Source: Clostridium zeae (GTDB taxonomy: Bacteria > Bacillota > Clostridia > Clostridiales > Clostridiaceae). From it: DNA of 24,000 nucleotides. This document shows, piece after piece, positions 337 through 17,254 of the stretch. Each line of letters starts with the position of its first letter. The stretch's first letter is position 1. The notes beneath the pieces are model-generated. The model saw only the letters and a list, made by a program, of their open reading frames with translations. It was not told where the DNA came from and searched no databases. Location: positions 672,396 through 696,395 of the forward strand of contig NZ_BMBA01000001.1 in NCBI RefSeq assembly GCF_017312485.1, read 5' to 3'. The translations under genes and the position numbers were made by a program.

Positions 337-1965
337 TTAACATATATGTATGTTGATATACTTTGCAAAATACTCTCTTAAATTATCATCACAGACATAT
401 ACATATGTCCCTTTTATACCACGAGTGAGGAGCACTGCATATGTATTAAGTATGTACTTCCTTAACTCTTCATCTGTTGCACCATTTTTTACTTTACTAT
501 CAAAAAAATTACCTCTATCTACACTTATTGTATTATTAGTCTTATCAAAAAACAGGTCTGGGCCGATCACAACTCCTGTATAATTTAGATCAAGTCCTGG
601 TAATGTATAAATACTCCCCATCTCTCTTTTAGCATCTTGATTACTTAACCAACCGCTCGTCTGACTATTCCATTTAATATTAATACCTTCAATGCTTATA
701 TCCGTAGATGTATTATCTTCTCTTCCTTTCCACTCCCAAGCATATCCTGTACAAAGCCTACATAGTCCAACATCATTTTCCTTTTCTTCAAGAAGCTTAA
801 CCATATCAGAAAATGATGTAAAGAGTTTAAACTCGTAGTCATTAAAGGACTTTACTTCATTTGCTCTTTGATATAATAGGTTATAAATATAAGGCACAAA
901 ACTACTTCCAGCTCCAATTCTCATTTGTTCATCAAGTTTTATGGGACGAATCCCCCTTTTATTATTCTTCAATCTTTCTATAAAAAGTTCGCATGTTATA
1001 TCAGAAGGGCATGTACTTTGTTTCTCATCAAAGAATAAGATTTGGCAGTCTGAATTATTCAAGATCCAATCTAATTCATCATGATTATTATCAAGTTCTA
1101 ATCTTTCATTACCTATTTTAAAGTTTACATAGTATTTCCCTAGATTTTTTCCACGCCTTAGTCTCTGCGCTTCATCACAGATAATAATGTCATAATGTTG
1201 TTTAGTGACTGCAATTGGACTAATAATATCTTTTTTACTAAGTCCTTTGGTATTCTTGAAAACTTCTTGCATTTCGCTACGAGTAGAAGAATTTGCGTAT
1301 ACTAACCCTATTTTTTTATCTCTATATCGTTGATTACTCTTTAAATAATAAAACAATGAAGTCGCCACGACTGTTTTTCCAGTACCCGCATCACCTTTTA
1401 TTAATATTGGTCTTGTTTTATAGTTCTCCATATGAGGTAATGTCTCACCTGAATCTATAGTATTTACAATACTTGTTAATGTTTTTTGTTGCGCTTCTGT
1501 TAAGACAGTATACGGAGAGTATTTATAAGTACTTGAGTTAATGATAAGCTCAAATTCTTTAGTCTTTGCTAGTCCATTTTCCACTAATTTGCCCCATAAC
1601 TTATCAAACTCCAATTCAAATTCATTTTTTCTGTAATAATGTGGTTTTTCGCCATCATTTCTATTTACAATATTAAACCTCTGATCTACTTTCATCAGTT
1701 TTATTAATAAATTTTCATAATGTTTTGCTGGTGTCTCTTCTGCTAACAGCCCAGTAATTATATGAACCTTATTAAAATTATATTTCTTATTTTTGTTATC
1801 TTTTGAATCACTGTTATGTTCCTTTACTCTTCTGATTGGATTGTTGGTTTCACCAATATATGCATCCTTTCCATTTTCTAATATGTAGACACAGTGATAC
1901 TCATATGAAATACCTAAATCATCGATGTTTTTATCAGAATAATCATAAGTCTCTATTTTAAACAT
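337..1965 (-). CDS. GIY-YIG nuclease domain fused to a DUF2075 / Schlafen-group-III-like P-loop ATPase (putative nuclease-helicase)
   Basis: 542-aa ORF with AGGAGG just upstream of the ATG. The N-terminus has a GIY-YIG pattern (HCVYILENGKDAYIGETNNPIRRVKEHN). It is followed by Walker A GDAGTGKT, Walker B IIICDEAQRL and a C-terminal LLTRGIKG motif-VI-like block, as in DUF2075-type SF1-like ATPases. Confidence 0.8.
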   Translation of the reverse strand: MFKIETYDYSDKNIDDLGISYEYHCVYILENGKDAYIGETNNPIRRVKEHNSDSKDNKNKKYNFNKVHIITGLLAEETPAKHYENLLIKLMKVDQRFNIVNRNDGEKPHYYRKNEFELEFDKLWGKLVENGLAKTKEFELIINSSTYKYSPYTVLTEAQQKTLTSIVNTIDSGETLPHMENYKTRPILIKGDAGTGKTVVATSLFYYLKSNQRYRDKKIGLVYANSSTRSEMQEVFKNTKGLSKKDIISPIAVTKQHYDIIICDEAQRLRRGKNLGKYYVNFKIGNERLELDNNHDELDWILNNSDCQILFFDEKQSTCPSDITCELFIERLKNNKRGIRPIKLDEQMRIGAGSSFVPYIYNLLYQRANEVKSFNDYEFKLFTSFSDMVKLLEEKENDVGLCRLCTGYAWEWKGREDNTSTDISIEGINIKWNSQTSGWLSNQDAKREMGSIYTLPGLDLNYTGVVIGPDLFFDKTNNTISVDRGNFFDSKVKNGATDEELRKYILNTYAVLLTRGIKGTYVYVCDDNLREYFAKYINIHIC

Positions 1966-2065
1966 ATTTCCTCCTATATACCATGTTTACACTTTTACTT
2001 GCACTCTATTTATAATTGATCAAGCTTTATATCTTTCCATAATTAATTTAATAAGCAATATAGAT

Positions 2066-3427
2066 TTATTCCAAAATAGATTTCATAAAGTTATTTAAAA
2101 CCCATAGTGAATTTTGATCAGAATAATTATAAAGCTGATTGATTGTCTCTTGAGGTATTTCTACTTTTCTATTATGCCAAGTATTAGTCGCTTTCCAGCT
2201 ATATCCGAGATATAGTAGATTGTTTTTTTTACTCACGTGATACAGAACTTCATTTAATACTTCTGCAATCATTCTAAATAATATCGGAGACATTTTTTTA
2301 TATTCATAATTGATAACAACGTCCAGTAGAATTGTTAAGCAATCATGGCATTTATCAAAATTAATATATGTAGTCGTCTGTCTAACTTTATTTATACATC
2401 TTGTAAGAAATTCAATATATGAATAAATCATGTGATACTCAAAGTCTGATGCTTGCTTAAGTAAATCTATTCTGAATTTTTGTTCATTCATAAACCTATC
2501 TACTAATTCTGGATCATCGATTTCTAATTTTCCAATAAGTTCATTTAAATCCTTTACCTTAATATCATATTCTTTTTTCCTTTCTAATAAATTTGTATTT
2601 AATTCCTCCAGAAATTTTTTTAAATCGCTAATTTCAATTATTATGTTTCCATTCTCATCTATGTATGGATCATCTTTAGGATTAGAGGTCCAAACAGCTT
2701 GTATAATCTCATATGGATACTCATTTTCTATTGTATAAATATTTTTTGACCAATCTAATGCAGAAAGAACATTCATATCTCCTAAACTATAACCAAGAAC
2801 TAAAGTTGTAGATTCTCTAATAGTCATCGCCAGCTTTGATTGTCTGTATTCATTAGGTCTAAAAAGTGGTATATAATCATCTTGAGTAATTATTATAGAA
2901 TCACAGTCTAATCTCGTACCATGAATATGATAGATAGGTATTACATTTCTTGGAGCTGATAAATAATTAGATGGACCTAAGCTCTTGCTTATTCCAGTAA
3001 GAATTGATTCCAAAACTAAATCATAGTTTGTAGTGACAATCCAATCTGGCTTGATATTATCAAATATATTTCTAAAAAATTTTATGTTATCTTCATCAGG
3101 CAGCCAGCTACTCAAGTCACAAATAGTACTCTTAAATTTACTTTTAGCTTCTTCATAGCTAATTTTTTCTACTTTGGATAATTGCTTACATAATACTGTT
3201 GACAATTCAGGTAATGAAATTCCTATTAATTTTTCACCCTCAGGGAACTCAAGACTTAATTTTTCACTAGTCTCCTTAATTAATTCAAACCAATTCAATG
3301 CTGGTTGAATTACATCACCTATAGCAGCCTTAGAAAAACCAGCTCCAACAAACATTCCTAAATTACCATAATTATATGAATTAAATAGTTTTTCAAGCAC
3401 CATTTCTTTAGTTAAACTCTCACTCAT
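2066..3427 (-). CDS. SIR2_2-family (defence-type sirtuin-like, putative NADase) protein with a helical C-terminal domain
   Basis: Signature blocks GAGFS (GAGxS), TTNYD, HIHG and GYSLGDMNV appear in the order seen in ThsA/DSR-type SIR2 domains. The C-terminal ~170 aa are helical with no recognisable SLOG, TIR or STAND. I moved the start from the ORF-track 3457 to ATG 3427 (MSESLTKE...), which has a GGGGAG RBS 5 nt upstream. Confidence 0.85.
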   Translation of the reverse strand: MSESLTKEMVLEKLFNSYNYGNLGMFVGAGFSKAAIGDVIQPALNWFELIKETSEKLSLEFPEGEKLIGISLPELSTVLCKQLSKVEKISYEEAKSKFKSTICDLSSWLPDEDNIKFFRNIFDNIKPDWIVTTNYDLVLESILTGISKSLGPSNYLSAPRNVIPIYHIHGTRLDCDSIIITQDDYIPLFRPNEYRQSKLAMTIRESTTLVLGYSLGDMNVLSALDWSKNIYTIENEYPYEIIQAVWTSNPKDDPYIDENGNIIIEISDLKKFLEELNTNLLERKKEYDIKVKDLNELIGKLEIDDPELVDRFMNEQKFRIDLLKQASDFEYHMIYSYIEFLTRCINKVRQTTTYINFDKCHDCLTILLDVVINYEYKKMSPILFRMIAEVLNEVLYHVSKKNNLLYLGYSWKATNTWHNRKVEIPQETINQLYNYSDQNSLWVLNNFMKSILE

Positions 3428-3517
3428 TCTGACTCCCCTTTCTTTTACCATACACATAATATTAAAATAGAGTTAATTATCTAATAGATTACTTCCTTTT
3501 CAACGAATAATATATTT

Positions 3518-4432
3518 CTACTCAAACCTTAATGCCAAATGTTTTAGATTCGCAATATTCACTTGTAATGATTCCACCTTTTTACCATTATGCTCGTATG
3601 TACTTGGTTCAGGGTAAACTCCTACGAAATAGCAAAATACTTTCTTATCCTTATTATTTATTATGTATTCCATATCTTCTCTGAATATTTTTCTTTTCCC
3701 ATATCTATCAATAAGCTCGCTGCTTATATATATCGAAACTGGCATATATTTTTCAACCCAAACTTTATCTTTGAAAAAGATTTTATAGTTATCTCCATAT
3801 TTTTTTACCAAGCCTACTTGCCCATAGTATACAAGTCCTTTTTCATCATAGAAGTATTTTATATTCTTAAACATTTTATAAAACTTTTTAGTTTTATCAC
3901 CCAGTGTAAAATCCATATTCTCTAATATTTCTTTGTTTCCATTTTCATAACAATCAACTATATGTTCAAAAGACTTAGTTCCAAATTTAGTCCATTCACT
4001 TGTACTTCCATCTCCATGTGTCGAAGGATTTTTTATTTCTTCATCTATTTCTTCATCAGTCCACGGTGTAGTAATTTTATTTTTAGACTTACCTTTATTA
4101 TCAACTAATATAAGTTCTGAAGGATATCTTGTCATCTTAAAAGGGTCATCTTCACCAGTTTTTGTACCACTTTTCCCTGCTTCTTCTCCTTTATAGGTTA
4201 AGCATGTGTGATCTTTAACAGACTTTGCTCTAAAATGAATAGCTCTCTTTGATCTTCTTTGTATGTATACTCCTACTGGTACCAACTCTGCTCTACAATC
4301 TTTATCTACGCATTTAAAAGATAAATCTTTCTTCATGTAGCGTTCGCTATCTTCATCAAAGTATATTTCTCGAACTTCATACGGTGTAACTGCTCTACCC
4401 AAGTTTTCACAAAATGCTTTTTCGAAGCTCAT
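3518..4432 (-). CDS. Hypothetical protein with an N-terminal Cys/His zinc-ribbon-like motif and an unassigned C-terminal domain
   Basis: 304-aa ORF from ATG 4432 (GTG at 4435 is also possible), with a GGAG RBS at 4441-4444. The N-terminal pattern FKCVDKDCRAELVPVGV...AIHFRAKSVKDHTC (CxxC...HF...HxC) resembles CoiA-type Zn ribbons. It is followed by a Gly/Lys/Asp/Glu-rich linker and a ~150-aa domain with no motif I recognise. Confidence 0.7.
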   Translation of the reverse strand: MSFEKAFCENLGRAVTPYEVREIYFDEDSERYMKKDLSFKCVDKDCRAELVPVGVYIQRRSKRAIHFRAKSVKDHTCLTYKGEEAGKSGTKTGEDDPFKMTRYPSELILVDNKGKSKNKITTPWTDEEIDEEIKNPSTHGDGSTSEWTKFGTKSFEHIVDCYENGNKEILENMDFTLGDKTKKFYKMFKNIKYFYDEKGLVYYGQVGLVKKYGDNYKIFFKDKVWVEKYMPVSIYISSELIDRYGKRKIFREDMEYIINNKDKKVFCYFVGVYPEPSTYEHNGKKVESLQVNIANLKHLALRFE

Positions 4433-4459
4433 CACTTCATCTCCTTCTACCGCAGTTTA

Positions 4460-4488
4460 CATATACTTATATAGACTATTACTTTCAA
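4460..4488 (-). promoter_or_regulatory. Putative sigma-A-type promoter for the Zn-ribbon/SIR2 cassette
   Basis: The minus strand reads TTGAAA (4488-4483), a 17-nt spacer, then TATATG (4465-4460), about 15 nt upstream of the GGAG RBS. The -10 is imperfect. Confidence 0.35.
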
Positions 4489-4537
4489 GTAAAAACTGAT
4501 TCTCTAATTTATGCTATTTTAATTTCTAAATAGTTTT

Positions 4538-4576
4538 GCTTTAAAGCTGGTTATATTTTATCAACAGCTTTAAAGC
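4538..4576. repeat. Perfect 12-bp inverted repeat (two copies of the self-palindrome GCTTTAAAGC); probable end-of-operon hairpin after hsdR and/or a protein-binding site
   Basis: GCTTTAAAGCTG (4538-4549) and CAGCTTTAAAGC (4565-4576) are exact reverse complements separated by a 15-nt loop. The repeat lies 65 nt downstream of the hsdR stop. No U-tract follows on the minus strand, so it is not a canonical intrinsic terminator. Confidence 0.5.
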
Positions 4577-4640
4577 ATTAGCTTATTTAGATGTTTCAAT
4601 GTAGTCTATCTGTAAATACTACTAATTTTTGCATAAATTT

Positions 4641-7600
4641 TTATATGTTGTATTCTTTTCCCTTTTCAGCAACCCTGTCAGCTGTTATTTCATCTAAGTC
4701 AACATTTCCACACATAAGCTCTGCTTGTCTCATTACTGTTTCTAATGCATGTTTTGCATGTTCTGGTGGATAGTTGTATTTTTTTAATAACCGCTTGATT
4801 ATTTTTCTCATACCAGCCTGAGCACTCTTTCTTACACTCCAATCTATAGTTATATTATTTCTTATAGATAGTGTTAGCTCATGAGCAATTTTCTTTAGTG
4901 TATCATCATCCATAAATTCTTTAATTATGTTATCTTCTGTTAATGCATCATAGAAGGCAATTTCGTCTTCATTAAGACCTAAATCTTTTTCTTTGTCTTT
5001 CATGTTTTTTATTTCTTGAGCCATTCTCATTAGTTCTTCTATAACTTCTGCATTAGTTATTGCTTGATTTCTATATTTATTTAAGGCTTTCTTTAGTTTT
5101 TCTGAGAACTTTTCTGACTTTACAAGGTTTTTCTTTTCCATTGCCTTTAGATTACCTTCAAGTAGCTTCTTTAACATTTCAACAGCTAAATTCTTGTGTT
5201 TCATGGTTCTTACTTCTTCTAAGAATTCTTCTGAAAGTATTGATATCTCAGGCTTGCTTATTCCCATTACATCAAATACATCTATAACATCCTCTGATAT
5301 AATTGATCTTTCAAGCATTTGATTAACTCTTGCTTCAATTTCTTTTTTAGTCTTTTTAGCTACACCTTTTGTATCTAATTTTGTAAGACTTGCTTTCACT
5401 GCTTTAAAATAGCTGACCTCTAAAGCTGCATCTTTCCCCTCATCAGTAGCTGCACATAAGGAGTGGGCTTTAGCAAGTTCTGTTGCAAATAGTTTAAAGT
5501 CTTTCTGTTCTTTTTCTTCCATACCTAGTATAAAGTTCATTCCACTGGTAATTGCTCTTATTCTAGCCGCTTGTGATATTCCCATATAAGCTGAGTAATC
5601 TAGCCCGTGAACCATATCTTGAAGTATTTCAAGTTTTTCAAGCATAACAGCTATTGCTGCAGATGTATCTATACCAGTATTCTGCTTATCGCTATCGGTA
5701 TACTCGTTTAGAGCTTTTTTCAAGCTTTCAAGAATTCCTAGATAGTCAACTACTACTCCTCCAGATTTATCTTTGAAGACTCTATTAACTCTTGCAATAG
5801 CCTGCATTAGGTTATGTCCTTGCATCGGCTTGTCTATATACATAGTATGCATAGAAGGAACATCAAAACCTGTGAGCCACATATCTCTAACTATTACTAT
5901 CTTTAAATCATCTTTATTATCTTTCATCCTTTTTGCTAGAGTATCTCTTCTTTGTTTGCCGCCTATATGTTTTTGTAATTTCTCATTTTTTTCACCAGCA
6001 GAACCTGTGATTACTACCTTTATCTTCCCTTTTTCTACATCATCACTATGCCAATCTGGTCTAAGCTTAACTATTTCATCATATAAATCAGCTGCTATTC
6101 TTCTACTCATGCATACAATCATAGCTTTACCATCAATAGTCTTTGCTTTTTCTTCATAGTGAGTAACTACATCCTGTGCCAACTTTTTCAATCTATTAGG
6201 TGAACCTATTACCGCTTCTAGTCTTGACCATTTTGACTTATATTTTTCTTTATCAAAGATTTCTTGACCTTCTGTTATTTCATCAAACTCTTCATCTATA
6301 TTTTTAAGTTCTTCTTCATCTGTCTCTAACTTTATAATTCTATTTTCATAATATATTTTTACAGTAGCTTCATCCTCAACTGCTCTAGTCATATCATAAA
6401 TATCTATATATTGTCCAAAAACTGCAGGAGTAGACTTGTCTTCTGATTCTATTGGCGTTCCTGTAAAACCTATGAAAGAAGCATTAGGCAGTGCATCCCT
6501 TAGGTATTTTGCGTAACCATATTTAACTTCTCCAGTTTTAACATCAGTTTTTGCTTCTAATCCATACTGACTTCTATGTGCTTCGTCAGCAATTATAATT
6601 ACATTTCTTCTGTCGGTTAAAACTGGCATTTCACCATTTTCAGGCTTAAATTTTTGTATAGTTGTAAAAATAATTCCTCCAGATTGTCTTTCATTCAATA
6701 AGTCAAACAATCCGTTTATTTCTTTTGAATTATCTTTAGCTTTAATATTAGTTTTTTTCTGCTCATCTGTTAGTTTTCTTACATTTGCTTGTTTGGGAGT
6801 TTCTCTTAAAATGCCTATAGAATTAGCAAAGGTTCCAAACAACTGGTCATCTAGATCATTTCTATCTGTTAATATTACTAAAGTTGGGTTATTAAGATTT
6901 TTTACGATTTGTCCAGCATAAAAAAGCATTGAAAAACTCTTTCCTGAACCTTGAGTATGCCAAATTACCCCTGCCTTCCTATCTCCATCTTCACTGCTTG
7001 CAAGCCTAGTCTTTTCAACTGCTTTCTTTACTGCAAAGTACTGATGGTATCCAGCTAGTATTTTTATTAGAATCTCATGATCACCAATTTTATTTCCTTC
7101 TGAATCATAATCATCCTTTTTCGATTTATGAAATAACAAAAAGTTCTCCACAATATCCAAAAATCTGTCCTTTTGAAGCATTCCTCTAAGCATTACTTCA
7201 TATTGAGGTAGATCTAATGAAGTAACATTAATTCCATCAATACTTCTCCAATTCATAAATCGCTCTTGATTTGAAGTAATAGTTCCAGCCTTGGCGTTTA
7301 TTCCATCTGATAGAATGCAGAAAGCATTGTAATTGAAAAGACTTGTAATATCTTGCTTATAGGTCTGTATTTGATAATAAGCATTTTCAATCCCTACATT
7401 TTCATCAGTAGCTGATTTTAGCTCAATTACTACTAACGGAATACCATTAACAAATATAATTAAATCAGGTCTTCTCTCTTCATTTTCAATTATAGTAAAT
7501 TGATTAACTACTAAAAAATCATTGTTTTTAGGATTTTTAAAGTCAATTATATATGCCTTTTCTGTTTTAGGCTGCCCATCTTTTCTAAAAGATACATCTA

Positions 7601-7898
7601 TACCTTCAATTAAAAGCTTATGAAATTCCTTATTGTTTTCTTCTAATATCGGACTGTTAAAGGTAATTATTTTTCTATAAGCCTCATCTAATGCATCCTG
7701 TGGTAAATCTCTATTTATAGTAAACAAAGCATCTTTAACTCTTTGCTCTAAGATACAATCCCTATAGTTTTTTCTCTCTGGATATTCTCCACCATAGCTA
7801 ATATCTGGACCAAAAGCATAGTTATATCCCATTTCTTGAAGTATCTCAATAGCTGCTTCTTCTAATAAATCCTCTGTAAAATTCTCAAGTAAACTCAA
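4641..7898 (-). CDS. hsdR: Type I restriction enzyme R subunit
   Basis: 1085 aa. N-terminal PD-(D/E)xK ([20 protein letters not shown]). SF2 motor motifs [24 protein letters not shown] and [11 protein letters not shown] start with an AAAGGGGGA RBS. It is the last gene of the hsdM...hsdS-hsdR array. Confidence 0.95.
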
Positions 7899-7924
7899 AA
7901 TGCATCCCCCTTTAATACGAGTTA

Positions 7925-9214
7925 TTAACTTTCACTAACTTCCACTGGCACTCTTATTTCGCCTGACATAAGTTTTGGTAGTAATAAATCTCTTAATTTT
8001 GCTAGTCTTGTGATCTCTTTATTAAGACTTGATATTTCTTCGAAAAGGCTTTCTCCTATTCGATCAAATTTATCGTAAATTGCATTTGGCGCTTGCACTA
8101 TTTTATAGCCTTTTAATAAATCCAATTGAACCCTTTGCCTTCCCGAACTACCACTCATACTTTTTATAGCATGTGCTCTAAAGTTTTCTTCTCTGGCTAG
8201 ACAATATATATATACTTTTTTATTTTTTTCCTTTCCTCTCATCACAATAAACTCTGTTGAACCAACAGCAACTTCTTTTTCTTCAAGGATGCTAATATAA
8301 GCAGTTTTTCCATTTTCTAAACAAGGTGTAATCCTTGCAAGTAGTGTATCACCATTTCTGAATTTGCTTCCACTGTTTAATTTTCTTAACTCCCAATACT
8401 TGATATTAGATGTATTGTTATCTATAGCAGCCATTTCAACGAATTTATATTCATTATCTTTTTTTAAAACTTCCTTTGGATTGAAGTAAATAATCTCTTC
8501 CAATTTACTTACTTCCCATCCCTTTGGAATCATCCCCAACTCACTCTCAATCATTTCTCCACCACTAGATTTATAAGGCTCCCCATCTTCATTAGGAAAC
8601 TCAAAATCAACAAACCATTGTTTAAAAATAGCTTGAGCCATTTTTTCTAGCTTTTTATTGATTTTGTTGTTTGTATCTATTTTTTCATCTATAGTTACAA
8701 GAATACTCGATATAGCTTTTTGCTCTTTTATAGGAGGTATTGTTATTAAAACCTTTCTAAACTCAGATTGTTTTATTCCTGATACAGTTGTTCCTGATGC
8801 TCTTATATTTAACTGATGTTGGCCTATTGGCGACTTCAAGTAATACATTAAATAGTCATTTTCTAGATAATTGGACTTTCCTCTTAATGTAAGCAATCTC
8901 TGTGCGATGGCAATACCATCTTTATCCAATCTTGCAACTAACCCTAGAGGAGCTTCTGTAGTCATAAGTATATCACCTCTTTTAGGGATTCCTCTTACCA
9001 TAAAGTTTGTATATGTTTCTTCTGATATATGATAAGCTAGATCATAGTCTATATATCCATCTTTAACACTTTTTGCGCTAAGAGTTTTTATTCCTTTATC
9101 AGATTTTCCAGGAGTTTTTCCCCTATAATCTATTATAGAACACAATGAATTTTCCATAGTATCTATGGTCCATTCATCAGGGAATATTCCTAACTCTGTT
9201 TCTCTAATCCCCAT
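7925..9214 (-). CDS. hsdS: Type I restriction-modification specificity subunit
   Basis: 429 aa with two target-recognition halves. The halves begin [12 protein letters not shown] and [13 protein letters not shown]. They are separated by a conserved central helix ([21 protein letters not shown]), and the protein ends with the conserved C-terminal helix [16 protein letters not shown]. Confidence 0.9.
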
Positions 9215-9245: not shown

Positions 9246-10271
9246 TTAACTATCAATCTCCAGCATCTCTCTATCCCTATTTATCTCCCTCTTCAATTCC
9301 TCTTCCGTAGGCATATAGAGTATATACTTTGAAGCAAATATTTGCTTGCTTTCTTCTAAGATTGAGTATTTTACTATAGTTTCATTCTTTTCGGAGCATA
9401 ATATAATCCCTATGGTTGGATTATCATCTTCTCCTTTTATTTCTTTCTCGTAATATCTCACGTAAAAATCCATCTGTCCTATATCTTGGTGAGTTAGTTT
9501 TCCTAGCTTTAGATCTATGAGAACAAAGCATTTAAGCAAATAATTATAAAAAACTAAATCAACATAGAAGTGTTCTCCATCTGCTGTTATTCTTCTCTGT
9601 CTTCCTATAAAGGAGAATCCTTTTCCAAGTTCCAATAGAAAATCTTGCAGGCTATCTATTAAGCCCTGCTCAAGATCTCTTTCTAAGAACTTCTTATTCT
9701 CTTTCAGATTTAAGAATTCCAATATATAAGGATCCTTTACCATATCATTTATACTTTTAGAAGGTTCTAATCCTTTTATTTCATTTCTAACTTCATTTTT
9801 ACTGTTTTCTTGAGTAGATAACAGTCTTTCATAATAGAATGAATTGATTTGTCTTTCTAACTGCCTTGTACTCCAATTGCTTTTTATACATTCATCTATA
9901 TAAAAATCTCTTTTCTTTTTGTCTTTAACTTTAATCAACAGTCTGTAATGAGTCCAACTTAATTCTTGACGCAGTGCGCCAACATTGTCAAACATCATAT
10001 AAAATTTTCTCATTCTTGATAAATTGCTTTTATCAAATCCACTACCAAAATCCTTTGTGAGATTTTTAGATAATTCATTCATCAATTCTTTGCCATACTC
10101 TGCTCTTTCACTACCCTCTAGTTCTTCATAAATTATTCTACCTATTTCCCAATAGGCTTTTACCATATAAAAATTTACGGCAGAATAAGCCTTAGAACGT
10201 GCTTCTTCTAATGTGCTTTTTATATTTTCATAAAGTACATTAGTTGAAATCTTGTCTTGCTTAGAACTCAT
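9246..10271 (-). CDS. DUF1016 / YhcG-family PD-(D/E)xK nuclease-like protein nested between hsdM and hsdS
   Basis: N-terminal helical region ([18 protein letters not shown]) and C-terminal nuclease core ([39 protein letters not shown]), both typical of YhcG. I chose ATG 10271, which has a GGAGG RBS 8 nt upstream and overlaps the hsdM stop by 11 nt. The ORF-track start at 10286 is a TTG without an RBS. Confidence 0.8.
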
Positions 10272-11778
10272 ATCCAATGCCTCCAAGATTCTTTCTTATC
10301 TCATCCTCTAATCTTCTTGATTTTGCAAATAATTCGCCAAGCTCACTTGTTAGAGCTTCCATCTTTTCTTCAAATGGAACTCCGTCATCTTCTACTTCCT
10401 CTATACCTACATATCTACCTGGTGTTAATACATATTCATGTTCTCTTACTTCTTCTAACTTAGCTGCTTTACAGAATCCTTGTATATCTTCATATTTTCC
10501 TTCTGTATTTCTATAATTATGATAAGTTTCAGCTATTTTCTTAACATCTTCAGTGTCCAATTCCCTATGTCTTCTATCAATCATTGCTCCTAGATTTCTA
10601 GCATCTATGAATAATATTTCATCTTCTCTGCTTCTAAACTTAGGATTATCCTTTTTATTTCTATTTAATATCCATAAGGATACCGGAATACCAGTTGAAT
10701 AGAATAGCTTATCTGGTAATGCTACTATTGCATCCACTAACTTCGCTTCTATTAAGTTCTTTCTTATTACTCCTTCATTGGAAGTATTTGAACTTAAGGC
10801 ACCATTTGCTAGTACTATTCCAGCGCAGCCATTTGGTGCAAGGTGATATACCATATGCTCTAGCCATGCATAGTTAGCATTTCCTTCTGGTGGAGTACCG
10901 TATTTCCATCTAACATCTTCAGTTAATTTATTTCCACCCCAGTCACTAATATTAAACGGAGGATTTGCTAAGATGTAATCTGCCTTTAAAGTTTTATGAA
11001 GATCCTCATGGAAAGTATCTGCATGATGTGGTCCTATATTACCATCTAGTCCTCTAATTGCAAGGTTCATCCTACAAAGTTTCCAAGTTGTTGAATTTAA
11101 CTCCTGGCCGTAAATAGATAAGTTCTCTATCTTTCCTTGATGCTCTTCTACGAACTTTTCACTTTGTATAAACATACCACCTGATCCGCAAGCAGGGTCA
11201 TAAATTCTCCCCTCATAAGGTTCTATCATTTCTACTAAAGTTTTAACTACTGAAGTTGGTGTATAGAATTCTCCACCGCCTTTTCCTTCTGAACTAGCAA
11301 ACTGTCCTAAGAAGTATTCATATACTCTACCTAACAAATCTTTTTCTCCATTTTTATGAAGCTTTACTGTTGAAATAAGATCTATCAGTTCTCCAAGTCT
11401 TCTTTTATCAAGCTCTGGTCTTGCATATCTTTTATCCAAAACACCTTTTAAAGTTGGATTTTCCTTTTCTATTAATATCATTGCATCATCTATGAATTGA
11501 CCAATCTTTGGATCCTTCGCATTATCTTTTATGAAATCCCATCTTGCTTCCTTTGGAACCCAGAAGATATTTTCTGATTCATATTCATCTCTATCTTCTT
11601 CAAATCCGTCCCCTTCTTCAACAAGTTCATTGTATTTAGTTTCAAATCTATCCGATATATATTTTACAAATATAAGCCCTAATACCACGTACTTATATTC
11701 TGCTGAGTCCATACTCCCTCTTAGTTTGTCTGCTGCTTTCCATAACGTTTCCTCAAATCCGATATTTGCTGTTGACAT
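10261..11778 (-). CDS. hsdM: Type I restriction-modification N6-adenine DNA methyltransferase subunit
   Basis: 505 aa. HsdM N-terminal domain ([10 protein letters not shown]), SAM-binding motif [10 protein letters not shown] and catalytic NPPF ([12 protein letters not shown]). An AGGAGG RBS lies 8 nt upstream of the ATG. Confidence 0.95.
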
Positions 11779-11801: not shown

Positions 11802-12236
11802 TTATTCAGCTATATTAAATAAATCATAAAAATACTCAAAATCATCTTCTAAATCTTTGTTAATTTCTGCATATTCTACAAAGGTTTCTTTATCATAGAT
11901 GCAATATATGTGTTTCGTAGTAAATTCATCTTTGTGATCAATCTTATACGCTGTCACAACTTTTTTAACGTGTTTTTTATAATCATCTATAACAACTCTA
12001 TATATGTCTCCATTAAAATTCTTTTCATAGTAATAATCCTTACTTTTGTTTGATCTCTTGTATACATAATCAGGTGCATATAATATTTCCTCAATTTTCT
12101 TAAGATTTATATCTGAATGTCTCTTTTTAATGTGATTAATGTAATTATTGTTATGTAGAACTATTTTTTCATGCAATTTTCCGTTTATTTTAAAACATAA
12201 TAGTTTATCTTCATAGAAATATTTCACAATTCTCAT
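11802..12236 (-). CDS. Small protein, possibly a PBECR-type (phage Barnase-EndoU-ColicinE5/D-RelE-like) nuclease or toxin
   Basis: 144-aa ORF 15 nt downstream of the HTH gene and 23 nt upstream of hsdM. The layout (...NHIKKRHSDI...ILYAPDYVYK...IYRVVIDD...VVTAYKI) matches my recollection of PBECR-family small proteins (H-x3-H block, PD-Y-V block, central beta strands). This assignment is by eye only. The true start may be GTG 12227, because the GAGG RBS abuts ATG 12236. Confidence 0.55.
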   Translation of the reverse strand: MRIVKYFYEDKLLCFKINGKLHEKIVLHNNNYINHIKKRHSDINLKKIEEILYAPDYVYKRSNKSKDYYYEKNFNGDIYRVVIDDYKKHVKKVVTAYKIDHKDEFTTKHIYCIYDKETFVEYAEINKDLEDDFEYFYDLFNIAE

Positions 12237-12251
12237 CCTCTATTTAACACT

Positions 12252-12845
12252 TTAAAAATTATTATCGTCAAAGACTTCAAAAATTTCATTTTCAAACTCA
12301 TCCTGTTCTGATCCAGTGGATACTCTATCTGGTAATAACTCTAGATAATGAGCCAAAGCCTCAATAGTTTTTTGGACAATAACCTCATGTTGAGCCTTTT
12401 CCATGAGTTCAACTATTAATTTATAGGTTTCTATATAAGGATTATCATCGACAATATCCATAGCATTTTTAAATCTAGAGATTAGTTTCGCTTTTTCAAT
12501 TGTTCTCTCCATAGTATTTATTTCTTCTTTATCGTAAACTGGAACCTTTTCAAAATCATTTATTTCACCTAATTGATACTTTTTTTCATGCTCTCTGATA
12601 ACAGGATTTAGATCCTTTTTAAGCTTCTCTTTCTGTATTTCTAATTTTTCAATTTCACTTAATTCTTTAGTAAAATATTGTTGATCTATTCCAAATAAAT
12701 CTTCTAATATCGGAAGATACTTTTTAGAAATGTTTTGCTTACCTTTAATCCAGAGATTAATATTTTGCTTTTTTATTCCTAGCTTATCAGCCAACTCTAT
12801 ATGTTGCATATTATATAAACCAAGTATATATTCTAATCCAATCAA
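12252..12845 (-). CDS. XRE-family helix-turn-helix protein (putative autoregulator, antitoxin or controller) with a ~130-aa helical acidic C-terminal region
   Basis: HTH_XRE pattern LEYILGLYNMQHIELADKLGIKKQNINLWIKGKQNISKKYLPILEDLFGI. I placed the start at TTG 12845, which has GGAGGTG 5 nt upstream. The ORF-track extension to 12941 (also a TTG) encodes a hydrophobic AT-rich artefact and contains the promoter. Confidence 0.8.
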   Translation of the reverse strand: MIGLEYILGLYNMQHIELADKLGIKKQNINLWIKGKQNISKKYLPILEDLFGIDQQYFTKELSEIEKLEIQKEKLKKDLNPVIREHEKKYQLGEINDFEKVPVYDKEEINTMERTIEKAKLISRFKNAMDIVDDNPYIETYKLIVELMEKAQHEVIVQKTIEALAHYLELLPDRVSTGSEQDEFENEIFEVFDDNNF

Positions 12846-12864
12846 GTGGTCACCTCCAGCAAAA

Positions 12865-12913
12865 TATTGTCTTAGCAAATATATTAATATTATAACGTCA
12901 ATTATTGTCTTAG
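12865..12913 (-). promoter_or_regulatory. Two exact 11-bp direct repeats CTAAGACAATA (minus strand), operator-like, overlapping the promoter
   Basis: The plus-strand sequence tattgtcttag occurs at 12865-12875 and at 12903-12913. One copy lies in the -35/-10 spacer and the other in the 5' leader just after the -10. The flanks are also similar (TTGA/TTTG on one side, AT/TT on the other). Confidence 0.45.
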
Positions 12914-12917
12914 TCAA
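12889..12917 (-). promoter_or_regulatory. Near-consensus sigma-A promoter for the HTH / PBECR-like / type I R-M operon
   Basis: The minus strand reads TTGACT (12917-12912), exactly 17 nt, then TATAAT (12894-12889). This is ~37 nt upstream of the GGAGGTG RBS and TTG start at 12845, and immediately downstream of the terminator at 13051-13089. Confidence 0.65.
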
Positions 12918-13050
12918 TATACATATGGTAATAAAAAGCAATTACCTACATCAGATTTTTGTTTATGTATCTGCATATTTAATCCTCAAAACTTTTCTAC
13001 CTATATAATAACATTCGCAAAGTAATCACTAGTAGCATCTATGTTTTTTG

Positions 13051-13089
13051 CAAAAATAAAAACTGCTAATATCATCCCCATTAGCAGTT
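13051..13089 (-). terminator. Rho-independent terminator ending the Mrr-like/McrB-like/McrC-like operon
   Basis: The minus strand reads AACTGCTAA, an 11-nt loop, TTAGCAGTT, then TTTATTTTTG. The 9-bp stem is perfect, its 5' arm overlaps the TAA stop at 13081-13083, and it is followed by a T-rich tract. Confidence 0.65.
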
Positions 13090-15504
13090 CATCTTCATTA
13101 TTCTTCTCATTACCTCTCTAGGTTTCCTATTAAATTCTTCCCTTGTAAACTCTTTAACATTATTATTAACCTCTACCCTTATATTGCTATTATCTATCTC
13201 AATCTTAATTTCATCACTTTTAAACCCTTTAATGCTGCTATCGTTACTTAACTTTTCGCCTATTTGCGTTTCGGTTAAAAAATTCACTCTTTTAAGTTCT
13301 TGCCATAACCTATATTCTTCTTTGGATCTTATACAAAGATCAGTTACAACTGAAGCATTGTTAAGTAAGAATTCTGTTGTATAAAGAACCTTTAGCACTT
13401 GATATCCCTTTACTTCAATTTTTTTATCAAGCTTTTTCCATTCCTCAATTTGAAAAACGTAATAGTCATCCTCCGATTCACTTGGTAATTCCTTTATAGC
13501 ATTTCTTTGCATTATCTTTATCTCTGAAACCTTACCATAGTAAATTATACCTGCTTCGTCACCAAATTGTCTCTTGGATTGAGCCAAAGCAATAAACTTA
13601 ACGTTGTGCTCAGCTAAGTTTACATTACTACAGCTAGTGTGATAAAATTTACTTTCTAAGTTTACCTTCAGTTGCTCTTTATTTCTTAATGCTCCTACAA
13701 GAACATTTCTATCTTTAAAGTATTCCTCTTTGATATACTCTTCTCTTCCTGTTGAATCTAGAGACCTCTCAAAATTTGAGTAGCCTGATTCATTTATTAG
13801 ATTGTCTAAAAACTCTTCCATCAATGATGTAGTTGAAGGAAGAAATGGTATACCTCCAATATTTACTTCTTCAATACTCTTATAAAAATCATGATTTCTA
13901 TATTCCTGCTCATCTTTATAAGGAAAAAGTACAAAAGCTCCAAAGACACTGTTATTAAGAGTTTCTGTTTTTTTATTTCTATATACTATAGCATCTCTGT
14001 ATCTATGCATTGTATTTATGTCTTCTTCCTTTGGTCCTATTCCACCATATTTTTTTTGATATTCTTTCGATGTATCAATCTTATACTTAGCATCAAATAT
14101 AAATTCATAAGCGTTCTCACTGCCCTGTTTATCTAAGACCAATATATTATCAGGCTTTTGAGTTACTGTCCTACTACCTTCATTATCAGAACCACTTTTA
14201 ATTGCTCTTGTTGATTTAATAGAATTATAGCACACCTTAAAGGTTTCTTTAGTTTTAGGATTTTCATATTTTAATGTAGATGTGGTCCCCTTTTTAAGTG
14301 AAACAAATATTCCTTCTCTATTAACTGTAATAAAATCTGAGCTTATTAGTTTGTATTTCTTTCTGAGCAAAGAGTTTATCTTAATAAAACACCAGTACTC
14401 ATAAAGCAAGCTTAACTCTTTCATTGATAAAGAAAAAATATTGCTATTAATGCTTAATCCTTTCTGGAGCATTAAATAGTACTTATAAATATCCTTATAT
14501 CCATTTGCCATACTAAAAACCATTGATATTGATGTATTTCTATAATCACTATTTACATTATTTAAAAAGGATGTTTTAAGTCTCTTATTTATTCCCCTCT
14601 TCATAATTGTTAGTTTATCAATAATATCACTATCTTTATTCCAGTACGAAGATGAATAAGTCTTAATAAACATATCTATCTTTTCGATAATCTTTATAAG
14701 CATGAACTTTAAATACTTATTTTCCTTTGTATCTAAAGTAACCTGCTTTGTAACCTGTAAAGCCTCAGTTGGTATATACTTTCCATTAATATTTTCTAAT
14801 AAATGTGGTCTTTTCTCTATCCATTTAATTGTATCCATACTGATATTTTTCAAGCTCTGATATTTATAGACTCTTGCATCCTTTGTAAGCTCATGATGAG
14901 GATTATATATAACTATATCAATAGCTTTCATCAGCCTTTCATATACATAATTTAATATACTGTAAAACTCAGTATAGCTATTACCTATCTTATTATTTAT
15001 TTCTGCACCCAAGTAGGTTCTACTTAAAAATCCATAAGCTAAATTATATATTTCTTCATTAACATCTTGTAGAATTGCTTTATAATCTTCCTTATAATCA
15101 ATTTTACTCGGAAGCACCTCAATAGTTACCTTCATGTGGATCTTTCCGTTTATCTTTATATAAAGATCTGAATATCCTATATCGCCCTTAAAATTAATTA
15201 TGCCACTTAAGATATTTCCGCCTCTTCCAGTTGGAGTCACTTTATTTCTTATGTTTGGATTTTCATGATAAAACTCTATAGCAGCTTTACCTTTTCTTTC
15301 AATTACTATCTCATAGTTGGTATATTCTTTAAAACAAAGATATTTATTACTATCCACTTCATATACCTTACCCTCTACCAAAACAGTAAGTGACTTTAAA
15401 TCTCCATATTTCACACTATCATCATTTCCCTTAATAGAGAAATAGAACTCATCAGTTTCTATAAATAAAAGCTCCAAACTATTGCCAGAAGGTTGTGAAT
15501 CCAT
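13081..15504 (-). CDS. McrC-like / DUF2357-type PD-(D/E)xK nuclease subunit with a long C-terminal extension
   Basis: 807 aa. Nuclease core KPDNILVLDK...YEFIFDAKYK followed by MHRYRDAIVY, as in McrC/DUF2357-DUF524 proteins. The ATG at 15504 has a GGAGG RBS (15515-15519) and overlaps the upstream McrB-like gene by 26 nt. About 230 aa after the core are unassigned. Confidence 0.85.
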   Translation of the reverse strand: MDSQPSGNSLELLFIETDEFYFSIKGNDDSVKYGDLKSLTVLVEGKVYEVDSNKYLCFKEYTNYEIVIERKGKAAIEFYHENPNIRNKVTPTGRGGNILSGIINFKGDIGYSDLYIKINGKIHMKVTIEVLPSKIDYKEDYKAILQDVNEEIYNLAYGFLSRTYLGAEINNKIGNSYTEFYSILNYVYERLMKAIDIVIYNPHHELTKDARVYKYQSLKNISMDTIKWIEKRPHLLENINGKYIPTEALQVTKQVTLDTKENKYLKFMLIKIIEKIDMFIKTYSSSYWNKDSDIIDKLTIMKRGINKRLKTSFLNNVNSDYRNTSISMVFSMANGYKDIYKYYLMLQKGLSINSNIFSLSMKELSLLYEYWCFIKINSLLRKKYKLISSDFITVNREGIFVSLKKGTTSTLKYENPKTKETFKVCYNSIKSTRAIKSGSDNEGSRTVTQKPDNILVLDKQGSENAYEFIFDAKYKIDTSKEYQKKYGGIGPKEEDINTMHRYRDAIVYRNKKTETLNNSVFGAFVLFPYKDEQEYRNHDFYKSIEEVNIGGIPFLPSTTSLMEEFLDNLINESGYSNFERSLDSTGREEYIKEEYFKDRNVLVGALRNKEQLKVNLESKFYHTSCSNVNLAEHNVKFIALAQSKRQFGDEAGIIYYGKVSEIKIMQRNAIKELPSESEDDYYVFQIEEWKKLDKKIEVKGYQVLKVLYTTEFLLNNASVVTDLCIRSKEEYRLWQELKRVNFLTETQIGEKLSNDSSIKGFKSDEIKIEIDNSNIRVEVNNNVKEFTREEFNRKPREVMRRIMKMNC

Positions 15505-17170
15505 CTCTCTGGAACCTCCTGATCATAAATATAATTTTTTCACTACTTAATTTATATTTACTGTTCTCACACTGTTTCTCCATAGCTTTTATCTGTATAT
15601 CATCTAAATACCCTTCACTTTCATAATCAGAGTCATTTAGATTATTAAATAACTTAATGAGTATATCCAATACTTCTCCTCCACTACCCCCTATCTTAGG
15701 TAGTATCTTTTGAACAATTGAAAAGTCCATTGCTTTTTCAAAGGAAAATAAATCATCTCTTACTGCATAGATTACATAAAACACAATCTCATCTCTTACT
15801 CTATATGCAAAATGCTGTTGGTACTTTTCAAGTATATTATTTATCTCAATCAATTTGTCTATAACCTTTAAGGCTATATTTTTTTCATGTTTACATTGTG
15901 ATAAGTTTAAATACTCAGACTTTAAAAAGTCATTGTGAAATTTTTTAGTTGAAAGCTCCTGTACTTCTGTTTCTTCAAAATTATATGTTAAATTAACCTT
16001 ATTAAATTCTATAGTGTTAGCTCTATCCAAGACCTTTTTACTAAAAGGAAATGTAGTCTCATCCATATTTACAGTACCAACAATATATAGATTTTGTGGA
16101 ATATACACATCTCCATACCAACCATAAGCAGCTTCATCTCTTCCAAACTGAGCCCTGTTTATAAGTTTCTGTGTAATAATCCCCTCATCACTTATTTTCC
16201 TTGTCTCCATAACTGATAAGATGTCACTAAAGTAATACTCTACCCTTGCTAGATTCATTTCATCTAGGCATAAGAAATAAGGTTTGTCTGGTTTTTTCAT
16301 TGCTTCATTGGCAATATCAATAATAATTCCTGGTACAAATTTGTTTTCGATATTTCTATAACCTAATAAATCTGTCGCATCCGACCAATCTGGCCTAACA
16401 GATATTAATCTAAATCTTCCATTGCCCCTATTTGCACCAACTGCTTCTGAAAAAAGTTCTATTACTTTACTTTTACCAGTACCTGATATACCTGAAAGAA
16501 TTGCAAATGGCTTAGTTTTTAGGCTAAGATATAAATTTGTAATTAAGTCTTTTGAATAATAGAAGCCCTTGCTTGAAATGTAATTATGAATAAAATCAAT
16601 CTCTGAATTGATATTAGTTATAGCTGCAAACTCATCTTCTGATTCTAAGTCTTCATATAGATCATCTTCAGGCTCTTCATCTTCTATAGTGATATTATCC
16701 TTATTAATAAGATTTATGATAAAATTATTAGGCTTATCTCCTTTAAAGAAATCTATATATTCAGAATACTCGTCTGGTATATTGACCGGCTTCTTGCCAG
16801 TGTCTTTTAAATAATTCATTATGTAATCATAGCTTACCGATAACTTATTTTGCAGCAATTCCTTTAAAGCCTTATTACTGTATAGTAACTGTATCGTAAC
16901 TCCTTTTCTATCTTTTGAGTTAGGCCATCTAATAACAGCATTATATTCTTTGTCTTTAAAAAACAATTTAATTTTTACTTGCTTACCTTTGGTAACTTCC
17001 TCAGATAGATTATCTAGAAAAACTTTATGATACCTTTCTGGTATTGTAGTTCCTTTATCAAAAGTACTATAGTCAACTCTTTTTCTTCCTAGAAAGCTTT
17101 TATCATCACTATTCATATCAACCCATGAATCTGGCCTTTTCTTTCTTTTGTTAACAATATTATTATCCAT
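15479..17170 (-). CDS. McrB-like AAA+ GTPase motor subunit with an unassigned N-terminal (DNA-reader?) domain
   Basis: Walker A GISGTGKS, McrB-type Walker B FLCLDEMNLARVE and signature GTVNMDETTFPFSKKVLDRAN. The N-terminal ~185 aa are followed by an acidic linker (EDEEPEDDLYEDLESEDE). I chose ATG 17170 (GGCGGTG RBS 6 nt upstream) over the ORF-track GTG 17179. Confidence 0.88.
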   Translation of the reverse strand: MDNNIVNKRKKRPDSWVDMNSDDKSFLGRKRVDYSTFDKGTTIPERYHKVFLDNLSEEVTKGKQVKIKLFFKDKEYNAVIRWPNSKDRKGVTIQLLYSNKALKELLQNKLSVSYDYIMNYLKDTGKKPVNIPDEYSEYIDFFKGDKPNNFIINLINKDNITIEDEEPEDDLYEDLESEDEFAAITNINSEIDFIHNYISSKGFYYSKDLITNLYLSLKTKPFAILSGISGTGKSKVIELFSEAVGANRGNGRFRLISVRPDWSDATDLLGYRNIENKFVPGIIIDIANEAMKKPDKPYFLCLDEMNLARVEYYFSDILSVMETRKISDEGIITQKLINRAQFGRDEAAYGWYGDVYIPQNLYIVGTVNMDETTFPFSKKVLDRANTIEFNKVNLTYNFEETEVQELSTKKFHNDFLKSEYLNLSQCKHEKNIALKVIDKLIEINNILEKYQQHFAYRVRDEIVFYVIYAVRDDLFSFEKAMDFSIVQKILPKIGGSGGEVLDILIKLFNNLNDSDYESEGYLDDIQIKAMEKQCENSKYKLSSEKIIFMIRRFQRDGFTTFWQ

Positions 17171-17254
17171 ATATTTCACCGCCTGTTATAGATTATATAA
17201 GTAATTTATATATCAAGTTTGTTATACATCACTATCAAAATAAGTTCATACTTC

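Follow-up and report, generated by a model that had tools for sequence, protein, structure and literature searches.

Among SIR2-type defense systems, hydrolysis of NAD+ that aborts infection has been shown experimentally for DSR2, ThsA, and SIR2-HerA. The DNA examined here, a stretch of 24,000 nucleotides (nt) from Clostridium zeae (hereafter the window), carries all of its genes on the minus strand; within a defense island, a gene for a rare, unannotated protein (gene A) is directly followed by a gene for a short SIR2 protein (gene B). In agreement with a preliminary description of the window, the partners and fusions of named SIR2 systems (SLOG, TIR, HerA, APAZ/pAgo, and STAND) were not found by Pfam or PADLOC; LmuB was not found either. 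That description had also proposed that A and B form a two-gene system, in which a zinc protein (A) is the sensor and the SIR2 protein the effector. We instead favor, with a probability of about 0.6, the reading that A and B are two functionally independent, co-oriented genes of the C. zeae defense island whose adjacency is lineage-specific. The two open reading frames (ORFs) and the hairpin-free spacer of 90 nt between them are present as originally described:

3518-4432, minus strand: gene A, 304 aa, of a rare unannotated family (public record CSC2_06330, exact sequence match)
2066-3427, minus strand: gene B, 453 aa (identical to CSC2_06320)

For gene A, 16 distinct genomic contexts were compared, the window included, with further loci retrieved by means of a 13-sequence A alignment. 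A SIR2 gene was sought within ~6 kb by tblastn and with a SIR2 hidden Markov model (HMM), which was run over all ORFs of 24 non-plasmid A loci (13 distinct contexts besides the window). For gene B, 16 contexts were likewise compared, including C. zeae and C. manihotivorum; a contig search with a single SIR2 query supplied 9 loci, and the 14 contexts other than these two species were screened with an A-family HMM. A SIR2 gene neighbors A in 2 of the 16 A contexts, C. zeae and C. manihotivorum, and A neighbors B in 2 of the 16 B contexts, those of the same two genomes. The C. manihotivorum gene is the sole match of the SIR2 HMM across the 24 non-plasmid A loci, and the A-family HMM gave no match in the 14 other B contexts. 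Because each gene nearly always occurs without the other elsewhere, A and B are probably separate modules and not a two-gene system; only in two related genomes are they paired, and in other genomes either family gets by without its counterpart. Conserved linkage, the absence of which had been set in advance as the refuting test for the sensor-effector proposal, is missing, and the proposal is not supported.

The A homolog of C. manihotivorum (89% identity) is followed by the SIR2 gene. The closest other relatives (36-52% identity) are found beside Abi_2, beside HNH_2 and a methyltransferase, beside a KAP NTPase and PLD, or alone: A stands alone after an AAA/S8 protease pair in locus L002; follows PLD, a KAP NTPase, and an uncharacterized gene, and precedes AlpA, in L003/L004; lies upstream of Abi_2, at a distance of 427 nt, in L005; and is flanked by a methyltransferase and HNH_2 (the latter 20 nt away) in L006. 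Elsewhere, A is preceded by LmuB and an uncharacterized gene (L016), by a PDC-M30/41 pair (L019/L020), or by AbiTii (L041/L042); has an IS integrase on one side and a NUDIX gene on the other (L017); is followed by an uncharacterized 334-aa gene that overlaps it (L018); or has DUF3825 before it and Lamassu and Wadjet genes after it (L040). In L021-L026, A adjoins SmpB and type I restriction-modification (R-M) genes, and a second A paralog is present. In L024/L027/L029, it is flanked by opposite-strand ORFs or preceded by an hsdR homolog and a PDC-S06 fragment; by ORF scan, A is monocistronic, with opposite-strand genes on both sides, in L024/L029. Homologs of A are also carried by 27 plasmids, all predicted to be conjugative or mobilizable. 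On Pseudomonas syringae pPT23A-type plasmids, A is in the maintenance region, where the genes for a ParA-like AAA ATPase and a small protein precede it; on Vibrio pVA1-type plasmids, it is alone, with H-NS on one side and transfer genes on the other.

Between the tandem A paralogs of L021-L023, L025, and L026 (about 5990-8700) there are an hsdM fragment of 111 aa and an ORF of 100 aa, and the paralogs adjoin smpB and the hsdM/hsdS pair of a type I R-M system; the first A copy is frameshifted or truncated in L025, L026, and L028. In L027 (1418-6879), an hsdR with 46% identity to that of the window is upstream of A, with a 217-aa PDC-S06 fragment between them. Three independent contexts (L027, L021-L026, and the window) thus place an A homolog beside type I R-M genes, which may be a chance outcome of defense islands. 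The P. syringae plasmid homologs (L049, L050, and L052, on pDC3000B, pHelB, and pPsv48C) align with A over the full length at 34-35% identity.

The closest relatives of B, at five Clostridiaceae loci (L008-L012, 62-69% identity), are without A and have no neighbor in common; their neighbors include Mrr_N, HxlR, HEPN_Swt1, an integrase, and an HNH protein. At one of these loci (L012, 6001-7347), from a Clostridiaceae metagenome-assembled genome, the B-family gene is split across several frames and is pseudogene-like. In Listeria, B is at the rlmH site and is preceded by an nSTAND3 gene; in Bacillus paralicheniformis, it is also at the rlmH site and is followed by a gene resembling a reverse transcriptase (RT); and in a Pseudomonas prophage (L039), it is alone between divergent and convergent genes, adjoining an S24 repressor. 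Six viral contigs were also among the B contexts compared. In Listeria monocytogenes (L031-L034, 1596-6413), the nSTAND3 gene (1127 aa) ends 22 nt before the B-family gene in the rlmH hot spot, and the pair could be a split Avs5-like two-gene system of STAND and SIR2 proteins. In B. paralicheniformis (L035-L038, 6461-8170), the RT-like gene encodes 569 aa with a weak reverse-transcriptase match, begins 84 nt after the B-family SIR2 gene, and is divided in two in some strains.

The proteins encoded by genes A and B

The products of the two genes are divided as follows:

4196-4432, minus strand: gene A residues 1-79, Cys/His domain, presumed zinc-binding (conserved Cys/His; pLDDT ~78-92)
3986-4195, minus strand: gene A residues 80-149, variable, charged, disordered linker (pLDDT <50 for residues 80-99 and 112-147)
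3521-3985, minus strand: gene A residues 150-304, small alpha/beta lead-in and OB-fold barrel as modeled (pLDDT 91-98)
2678-3427, minus strand: gene B residues 1-250, SIR2_2 NADase-type domain (PF13289, 3e-17; GAGFS Rossmann loop, N134 in TTNYD, H169 in HIHG)
2066-2677, minus strand: gene B residues 251-453 and stop codon, family-specific C-terminal domain (homologs align full length)

The placement of A outside described families stands: gene A and 39 family members, scanned singly, had no match in Pfam, NCBIfam, PHROG, or PADLOC, and a profile of A gave nothing meaningful against PDB sequences. The family comprises 94 clusters (exhaustive phmmer search of 1.84 billion representatives), and the profile retrieved 6 proteins in a further word-indexed protein search. 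Full-length relatives are ~300-334 aa long and have the same layout; because none is longer than 334 aa, the family is taken to be without fusions. No homologs of A were found in the viral contigs or phage genomes searched.

The AlphaFold2 model of A, built from a 39-sequence alignment, has a pLDDT of 80.8 and a pTM of 0.80. Among the 39 sequences, C41, C46, F67, and C77 are invariant, and C8, H75, and P104 are conserved in at least 90%. The N-terminal domain is confidently modeled, with five conserved Cys/His positions that are candidate ligands (C8, C41, C46, H75, and C77), and no fold match was obtained for it. Of the zinc-ribbon-like N-terminus previously described for A, the Cys/His character was confirmed; the motif is C41-x4-C46 rather than CxxC, H66 is not conserved, and a zinc-ribbon fold is unconfirmed. 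The linker contains one short strand with a conserved motif, FKxTRYPSEL (about residues 98-109; pLDDT 83 for 101-110), that includes the nearly invariant P104. The C-terminal domain abounds in conserved aromatic and basic residues. Foldseek matched it in the PDB to the SSB proteins of E. coli, Klebsiella, and Pseudomonas (prob 0.99-1.0, E ~1e-3; E. coli SSB 1.1e-3, prob 1.0), as well as to Teb1, the AspRS anticodon-binding domain, MCM10, and RPA; structure matches in BFVD were phage SSBs and baculovirus LEF-3. Judging from this model, A is most likely a nucleic-acid binder, for which single-stranded DNA (ssDNA) is the leading candidate ligand. In the reading we favor, A would be a zinc-stabilized OB-fold protein of mobile elements (genomic islands and plasmid backbones) that binds nucleic acid, most likely ssDNA, and would act independently of SIR2. 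The product of gene A is rare and without annotation, its zinc/OB architecture is predicted with confidence, and it is found both in defense islands and on plasmid backbones; it may thus serve mobile elements in a way so far unrecognized.

Gene B holds all four of the SIR2_2 blocks reported in the preliminary description (GAGFS, TTNYD, HIHG, and GYSLGDMNV). Across 29 diverse family members, G28-A29-G30, T132-T133-N134-Y135-D136, H167, H169-G170, G212, L215, D217, and N219 are invariant, and F31, S32, Y213, and G216 are nearly invariant only. In the C-terminal ~200 aa, F312, R319, F357, D369, and G408 are conserved, with several positions invariant in the same 29 sequences; this tail has no significant Pfam or PDB match. 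The family profile matches ThsA (7uxt, 9.7e-9), DSR2 (8k98, 2.3e-7), and KomC (2.7e-7) in the PDB, and also FAM118B, in each case through the SIR2 domain only. The best PADLOC matches of B (PDC-S25, ThsA1, and SIR2-type LmuA) are all confined to the N-terminal half, and phrog_7567 covers B over its full length. In a word-indexed search the family comprises 315 clusters, most of which are 429-496 aa long and align over 94-100% of B; at this query coverage no fusions were found. Hosts include Clostridium, Sarcina, Bacillus, Listeria, Lysinibacillus, Paenibacillus, Vibrio, Pseudomonas, Pedobacter, and Desulfotalea, and full-length relatives are encoded by six viral contigs. From its sequence, we infer that B is an NADase-type effector with intact catalytic Asn and His positions, one of a widespread family of 'short SIR2' proteins of roughly 450-480 aa.

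Gene B most likely encodes a self-contained sensor-effector, in which sensing and catalysis reside in a single protein. In the absence of infection, the SIR2 domain would be kept inactive by the C-terminal domain; once an infection cue is received, by analogy with described systems, the SIR2 domain would hydrolyze NAD+ and bring about abortive infection. We propose this mechanism because B is homologous to DSR2 and ThsA, has its catalytic positions intact, and belongs to a family found in prophages and hot spots. If B does work in this way, it would represent a compact single-protein SIR2 defense of 450 aa, the family of which ranges from Clostridium to Pseudomonas and extends to prophages. 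Its sensor domain would be unrelated to the sensors of DSR, ThsA, and Avs5, and such a system would help to explain how SIR2 NADases are switched on.

Alternative explanations for the pair

The plasmid-backbone contexts make a role of A in element establishment or maintenance, rather than in defense, a serious option. In its full form, this explanation holds that A is no defense gene and that its SSB-like product binds ssDNA and serves mobile elements in maintenance, establishment, or anti-defense, its place in the island being due to chance; this is possible, if on the unlikely side. It accommodates the 27 conjugative or mobilizable plasmids, the position of A after the ParA-like ATPase and small protein in P. 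syringae and between H-NS and transfer genes in Vibrio, and an OB fold like those of plasmid and phage SSBs; moreover, the par-like determinant SD7 of pPsv48C, when cloned without the A homolog, had no stabilizing activity (PMC6354349). However, defense genes crowd most of the chromosomal contexts of A, A was not found in the phage collections searched, and the acidic tip at the C-terminus of canonical SSBs is missing from A. This explanation concerns the role of A only, and is compatible with the independence of A and B.

Several observations weigh against independence. Only ~16 contexts per family were sampled. At the DNA level, the window is homologous to the C. manihotivorum locus only at 2065-4452 (2392 nt, 88.7% identity), a block with sharp edges, 20 nt upstream of the ATG of A and at the stop codon of B, beyond which the flanks are unrelated. 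A and B have the same orientation, and no terminator-like site was found in the 90 nt that separate them; the promoter-like site in this spacer is not conserved in C. manihotivorum, and such sites occur at chance frequency. Lastly, the OB-fold matches of A are modest (best E ~1e-3, TM ~0.5 on the target). The non-coding features concerned are:

3428-3517, minus strand: spacer between A and B, 90 nt, with a promoter-like TTGAAA-16-GATAAT at 3503-3476 (promoter, repeat, and alignment scans)
4460-4488, minus strand: promoter-like TTGAAA (4488-4483), N17, TATATG (4465-4460), upstream of gene A (direct sequence reading)

Because the block is sharply bounded and its flanks are unrelated, A and B have traveled or persisted together. 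One alternative, in line with the preliminary description, is that A and B are a genuine two-gene system in this Clostridium lineage, in which the SIR2 NADase would be activated or licensed by A once A has bound phage nucleic acid; we regard this as unlikely. In its favor, the 2.39-kb block is shared by two species with different flanks, and the divergence of the two proteins is similar (89% amino acid identity for A, 91% for B); the genes are on the same strand with no terminator found between them. Furthermore, the block, in which homology stops at 4452, leaves out the promoter-like region upstream of A, which would fit one transcription unit entered from outside. Nevertheless, linkage was seen in no other context sampled for either family, B relatives with the full-length architecture stand alone, as do A relatives, and no fusions were found. 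The spacer is poorly conserved relative to C. manihotivorum, with a 24-nt indel, and the co-inheritance behind the evidence is a single evolutionary event. The block borders have no direct or inverted repeats marking a transposon or cassette, and the paired copies of A and B have neither gained nor lost a domain relative to unpaired relatives.

With regard to transcription, both hexamers of the element described earlier upstream of A (TTGAAA-N17-TATATG) are present, and the site in the spacer between A and B scores better. Promoter-like sites number 21, vs. 18.2 +/- 4.3 in shuffles, a chance density for AT-rich DNA; because such sites are not above the shuffle frequency, the upstream element is not evidence of a promoter. 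Repeat and terminator scans found no inverted repeat and no terminator-like site in the spacer (3428-3517).

We consider doubtful the broader proposal that A belongs to a new class of mobile-element zinc/OB-fold nucleic-acid sensors, protecting alone and without an enzymatic domain (for example, by sequestering ssDNA intermediates of phage replication) or by licensing an adjacent effector such as SIR2, and that the short-SIR2 family is a widespread, unnamed single-protein NADase defense with a new sensor tail. More specifically, A might be a portable module, a sensor or adaptor whose partner is simply the effector that adjoins it (SIR2 here, HNH_2 in L006, Abi_2 in L005, and uncharacterized proteins elsewhere), and an effector-like gene is indeed directly downstream in some contexts (HNH_2 at 20 nt, the overlapping 334-aa gene of L018, Abi_2 in L005, and SIR2 here). 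This is quite improbable, given that in L024/L029 and on pVA1 A is monocistronic and has opposite-strand genes on both sides, that many of its neighbors are complete known systems (Lamassu, PDC-M30/41, and Wadjet), that the maintenance region of P. syringae plasmids has A after a parA-like pair, and that the Abi_2 gene is 427 nt away. That B is a housekeeping NAD-dependent protein deacylase, as the NCBI names of its relatives (and nothing besides) would have it, is extremely improbable, as B matches PF13289 SIR2_2 with no classical sirtuin family among its Pfam matches, its nearest solved relatives are defense NADases, and the family is found in prophages, viral contigs, and variable hot spots. 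For the preferred reading, that of two independent genes, the lesson is a negative one: adjacency within a defense island was mistaken for a system.

The surrounding island

The C. zeae locus is a dense defense island, as had been recognized, comprising type I R-M, McrBC-like, PLD-helicase type IV, HepT/MNT, and GIY-YIG helicase components. In the direction of transcription, a HepT/MNT toxin-antitoxin is followed by a PLD-helicase-DUF3427 type IV enzyme, the McrBC-like set, an HTH gene with PBECR3, hsdM, YhcG/DUF1016, hsdS, hsdR, gene A, gene B, and the GIY-YIG/Schlafen-group-3 helicase gene. The features that flank A and B are:

4641-7898, minus strand: hsdR of the type I R-M operon, upstream context (Pfam HSDR_N 6.5e-49, SWI2_SNF2 1.1e-76, T1RH-like_C 3e-115)
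4537-4577, no strand: palindrome, 64 nt downstream of the hsdR stop codon (inverted repeat with 19-nt arms, 89% complementary)
337-1965, minus strand: GIY-YIG and Schlafen-group-3 helicase protein, directly after gene B (SLFN-g3_helicase 1.5e-63, GIY-YIG 1.8e-8)

The spacer between hsdR and A measures 208 nt if it is taken to end at the ATG at 4432; taken to an in-frame GTG at 4435, it has the length originally given, 205 nt. The palindrome reported within it is present, with the outer 13 bp perfect (TGCTTTAAAGCTG/CAGCTTTAAAGCA); it has no trailing T-run, and a terminator scan gave no call. It could be the terminator stem of hsdR. The palindrome was also considered as a sign of regulation of A and rejected as such, as it lies outside the conserved A+B block and an hsdR terminator stem fits equally well.

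The neighbor of gene B, formerly termed a 'nuclease-helicase', can be specified as a GIY-YIG and Schlafen-group-3 helicase protein, which has partial PADLOC matches to AbiO and PDC-S14. A relative of this protein, with an extra S24 peptidase domain, is encoded near the A homolog in L003/L004. The McrBC-like trio (13081-18829, minus strand) consists of a 524-aa protein (17255-18829) with no match in Pfam or PADLOC, an AAA_5 protein (15479-17179; PADLOC candidate PDC-M26A, 1.9e-50), and a DUF2357 and PDDEXK_7 nuclease (13081-15504), the gene of which overlaps that of the AAA_5 protein by 26 nt. Inside the type I R-M operon, a YhcG/DUF1016 PD-(D/E)xK nuclease gene (9246-10286, minus strand) is situated between hsdM and hsdS and overlaps the end of hsdM by 26 nt. 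Directly upstream of hsdM (11802-12941, minus strand) are the genes for an HTH_3 protein (229 aa) and, after it, a PBECR3 (Barnase/EndoU/RelE-like) nuclease (144 aa), which may act as regulator and toxin. No match to Rfam and no tRNA was found in the window.

Comparison with known systems

Literature searches on stand-alone or short SIR2 systems, PDC-S25, and OB/zinc defense proteins turned up no account of the A or the B family. Gene B was considered as a ThsA, a DSR, an LmuA partner, or a HerA partner, and rejected in each case, as the defining partners or domains were not found. In contrast to SIR2-HerA (Nezha), HerA was not found, and B has gene A and the GIY-YIG/SLFN helicase gene as neighbors; in contrast to SPARSA, there is no APAZ, PIWI, or MID match among the window proteins. 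B also differs from Avs5/SIR2-STAND in being without a P-loop domain by Pfam; nSTAND3 is a separate gene beside the Listeria relative, and is not present beside B in C. zeae.

Lamassu LmuA-SIR2 resembles B in having a SIR2 N-terminus and a non-catalytic tail in ~430 aa (PDLC03856, 3.2e-10), but only the SIR2 part matches, and neither LmuB nor LmuC adjoins B; among the window proteins scanned with PADLOC, none matched LmuB. The single-gene SIR2 candidate PDC-S25 is the best PADLOC match of B (1.5e-20), yet it covers residues 11-224 of B (model positions 14-238 of 517), and the C-terminal halves are unrelated; no experimental test of PDC-S25 turned up in the literature searched. Thoeris ThsA provides the best solved SIR2 match (7uxt) and a PADLOC ThsA1 match of 3e-14, and is of similar overall length. 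However, Pfam did not find SLOG in B, the match to the ThsA model is limited to SIR2 (5-254 of 478), and no TIR (ThsB) family is among the Pfam matches of the window proteins.

With respect to gene A, the predicted C-terminal domain superposes on the OB folds of SSB, Teb1, AspRS-N, and MCM10, and its conserved residues are aromatic and basic; in sequence, A shows no similarity to these proteins. A is unlike canonical SSB in its C-terminus, which ends ...LALRFE, and in having no SSB match in Pfam or among PDB sequences, and it is unlike SSB/OB-fold binders generally in its extra Cys/His N-terminal domain and 70-aa disordered linker.

DSR1 and DSR2 differ from B in size (~1000 aa or more vs. 453 aa, or 429-496 aa for B relatives); the MID/CTD regions of DSR2 have no detectable similarity to the ~200-aa tail of B, and no PADLOC Dsr model matches B. 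Like B, DSR1 and DSR2 are encoded by a single gene and combine an N-terminal SIR2 domain with a non-catalytic C-terminal region. The SIR2 domains of DSR2 (8k98) and B are related, and N134 and H169 are invariant in the 29 B sequences; the catalytic Asn and His of DSR2 lie at nearly the same positions (N133 and H171).

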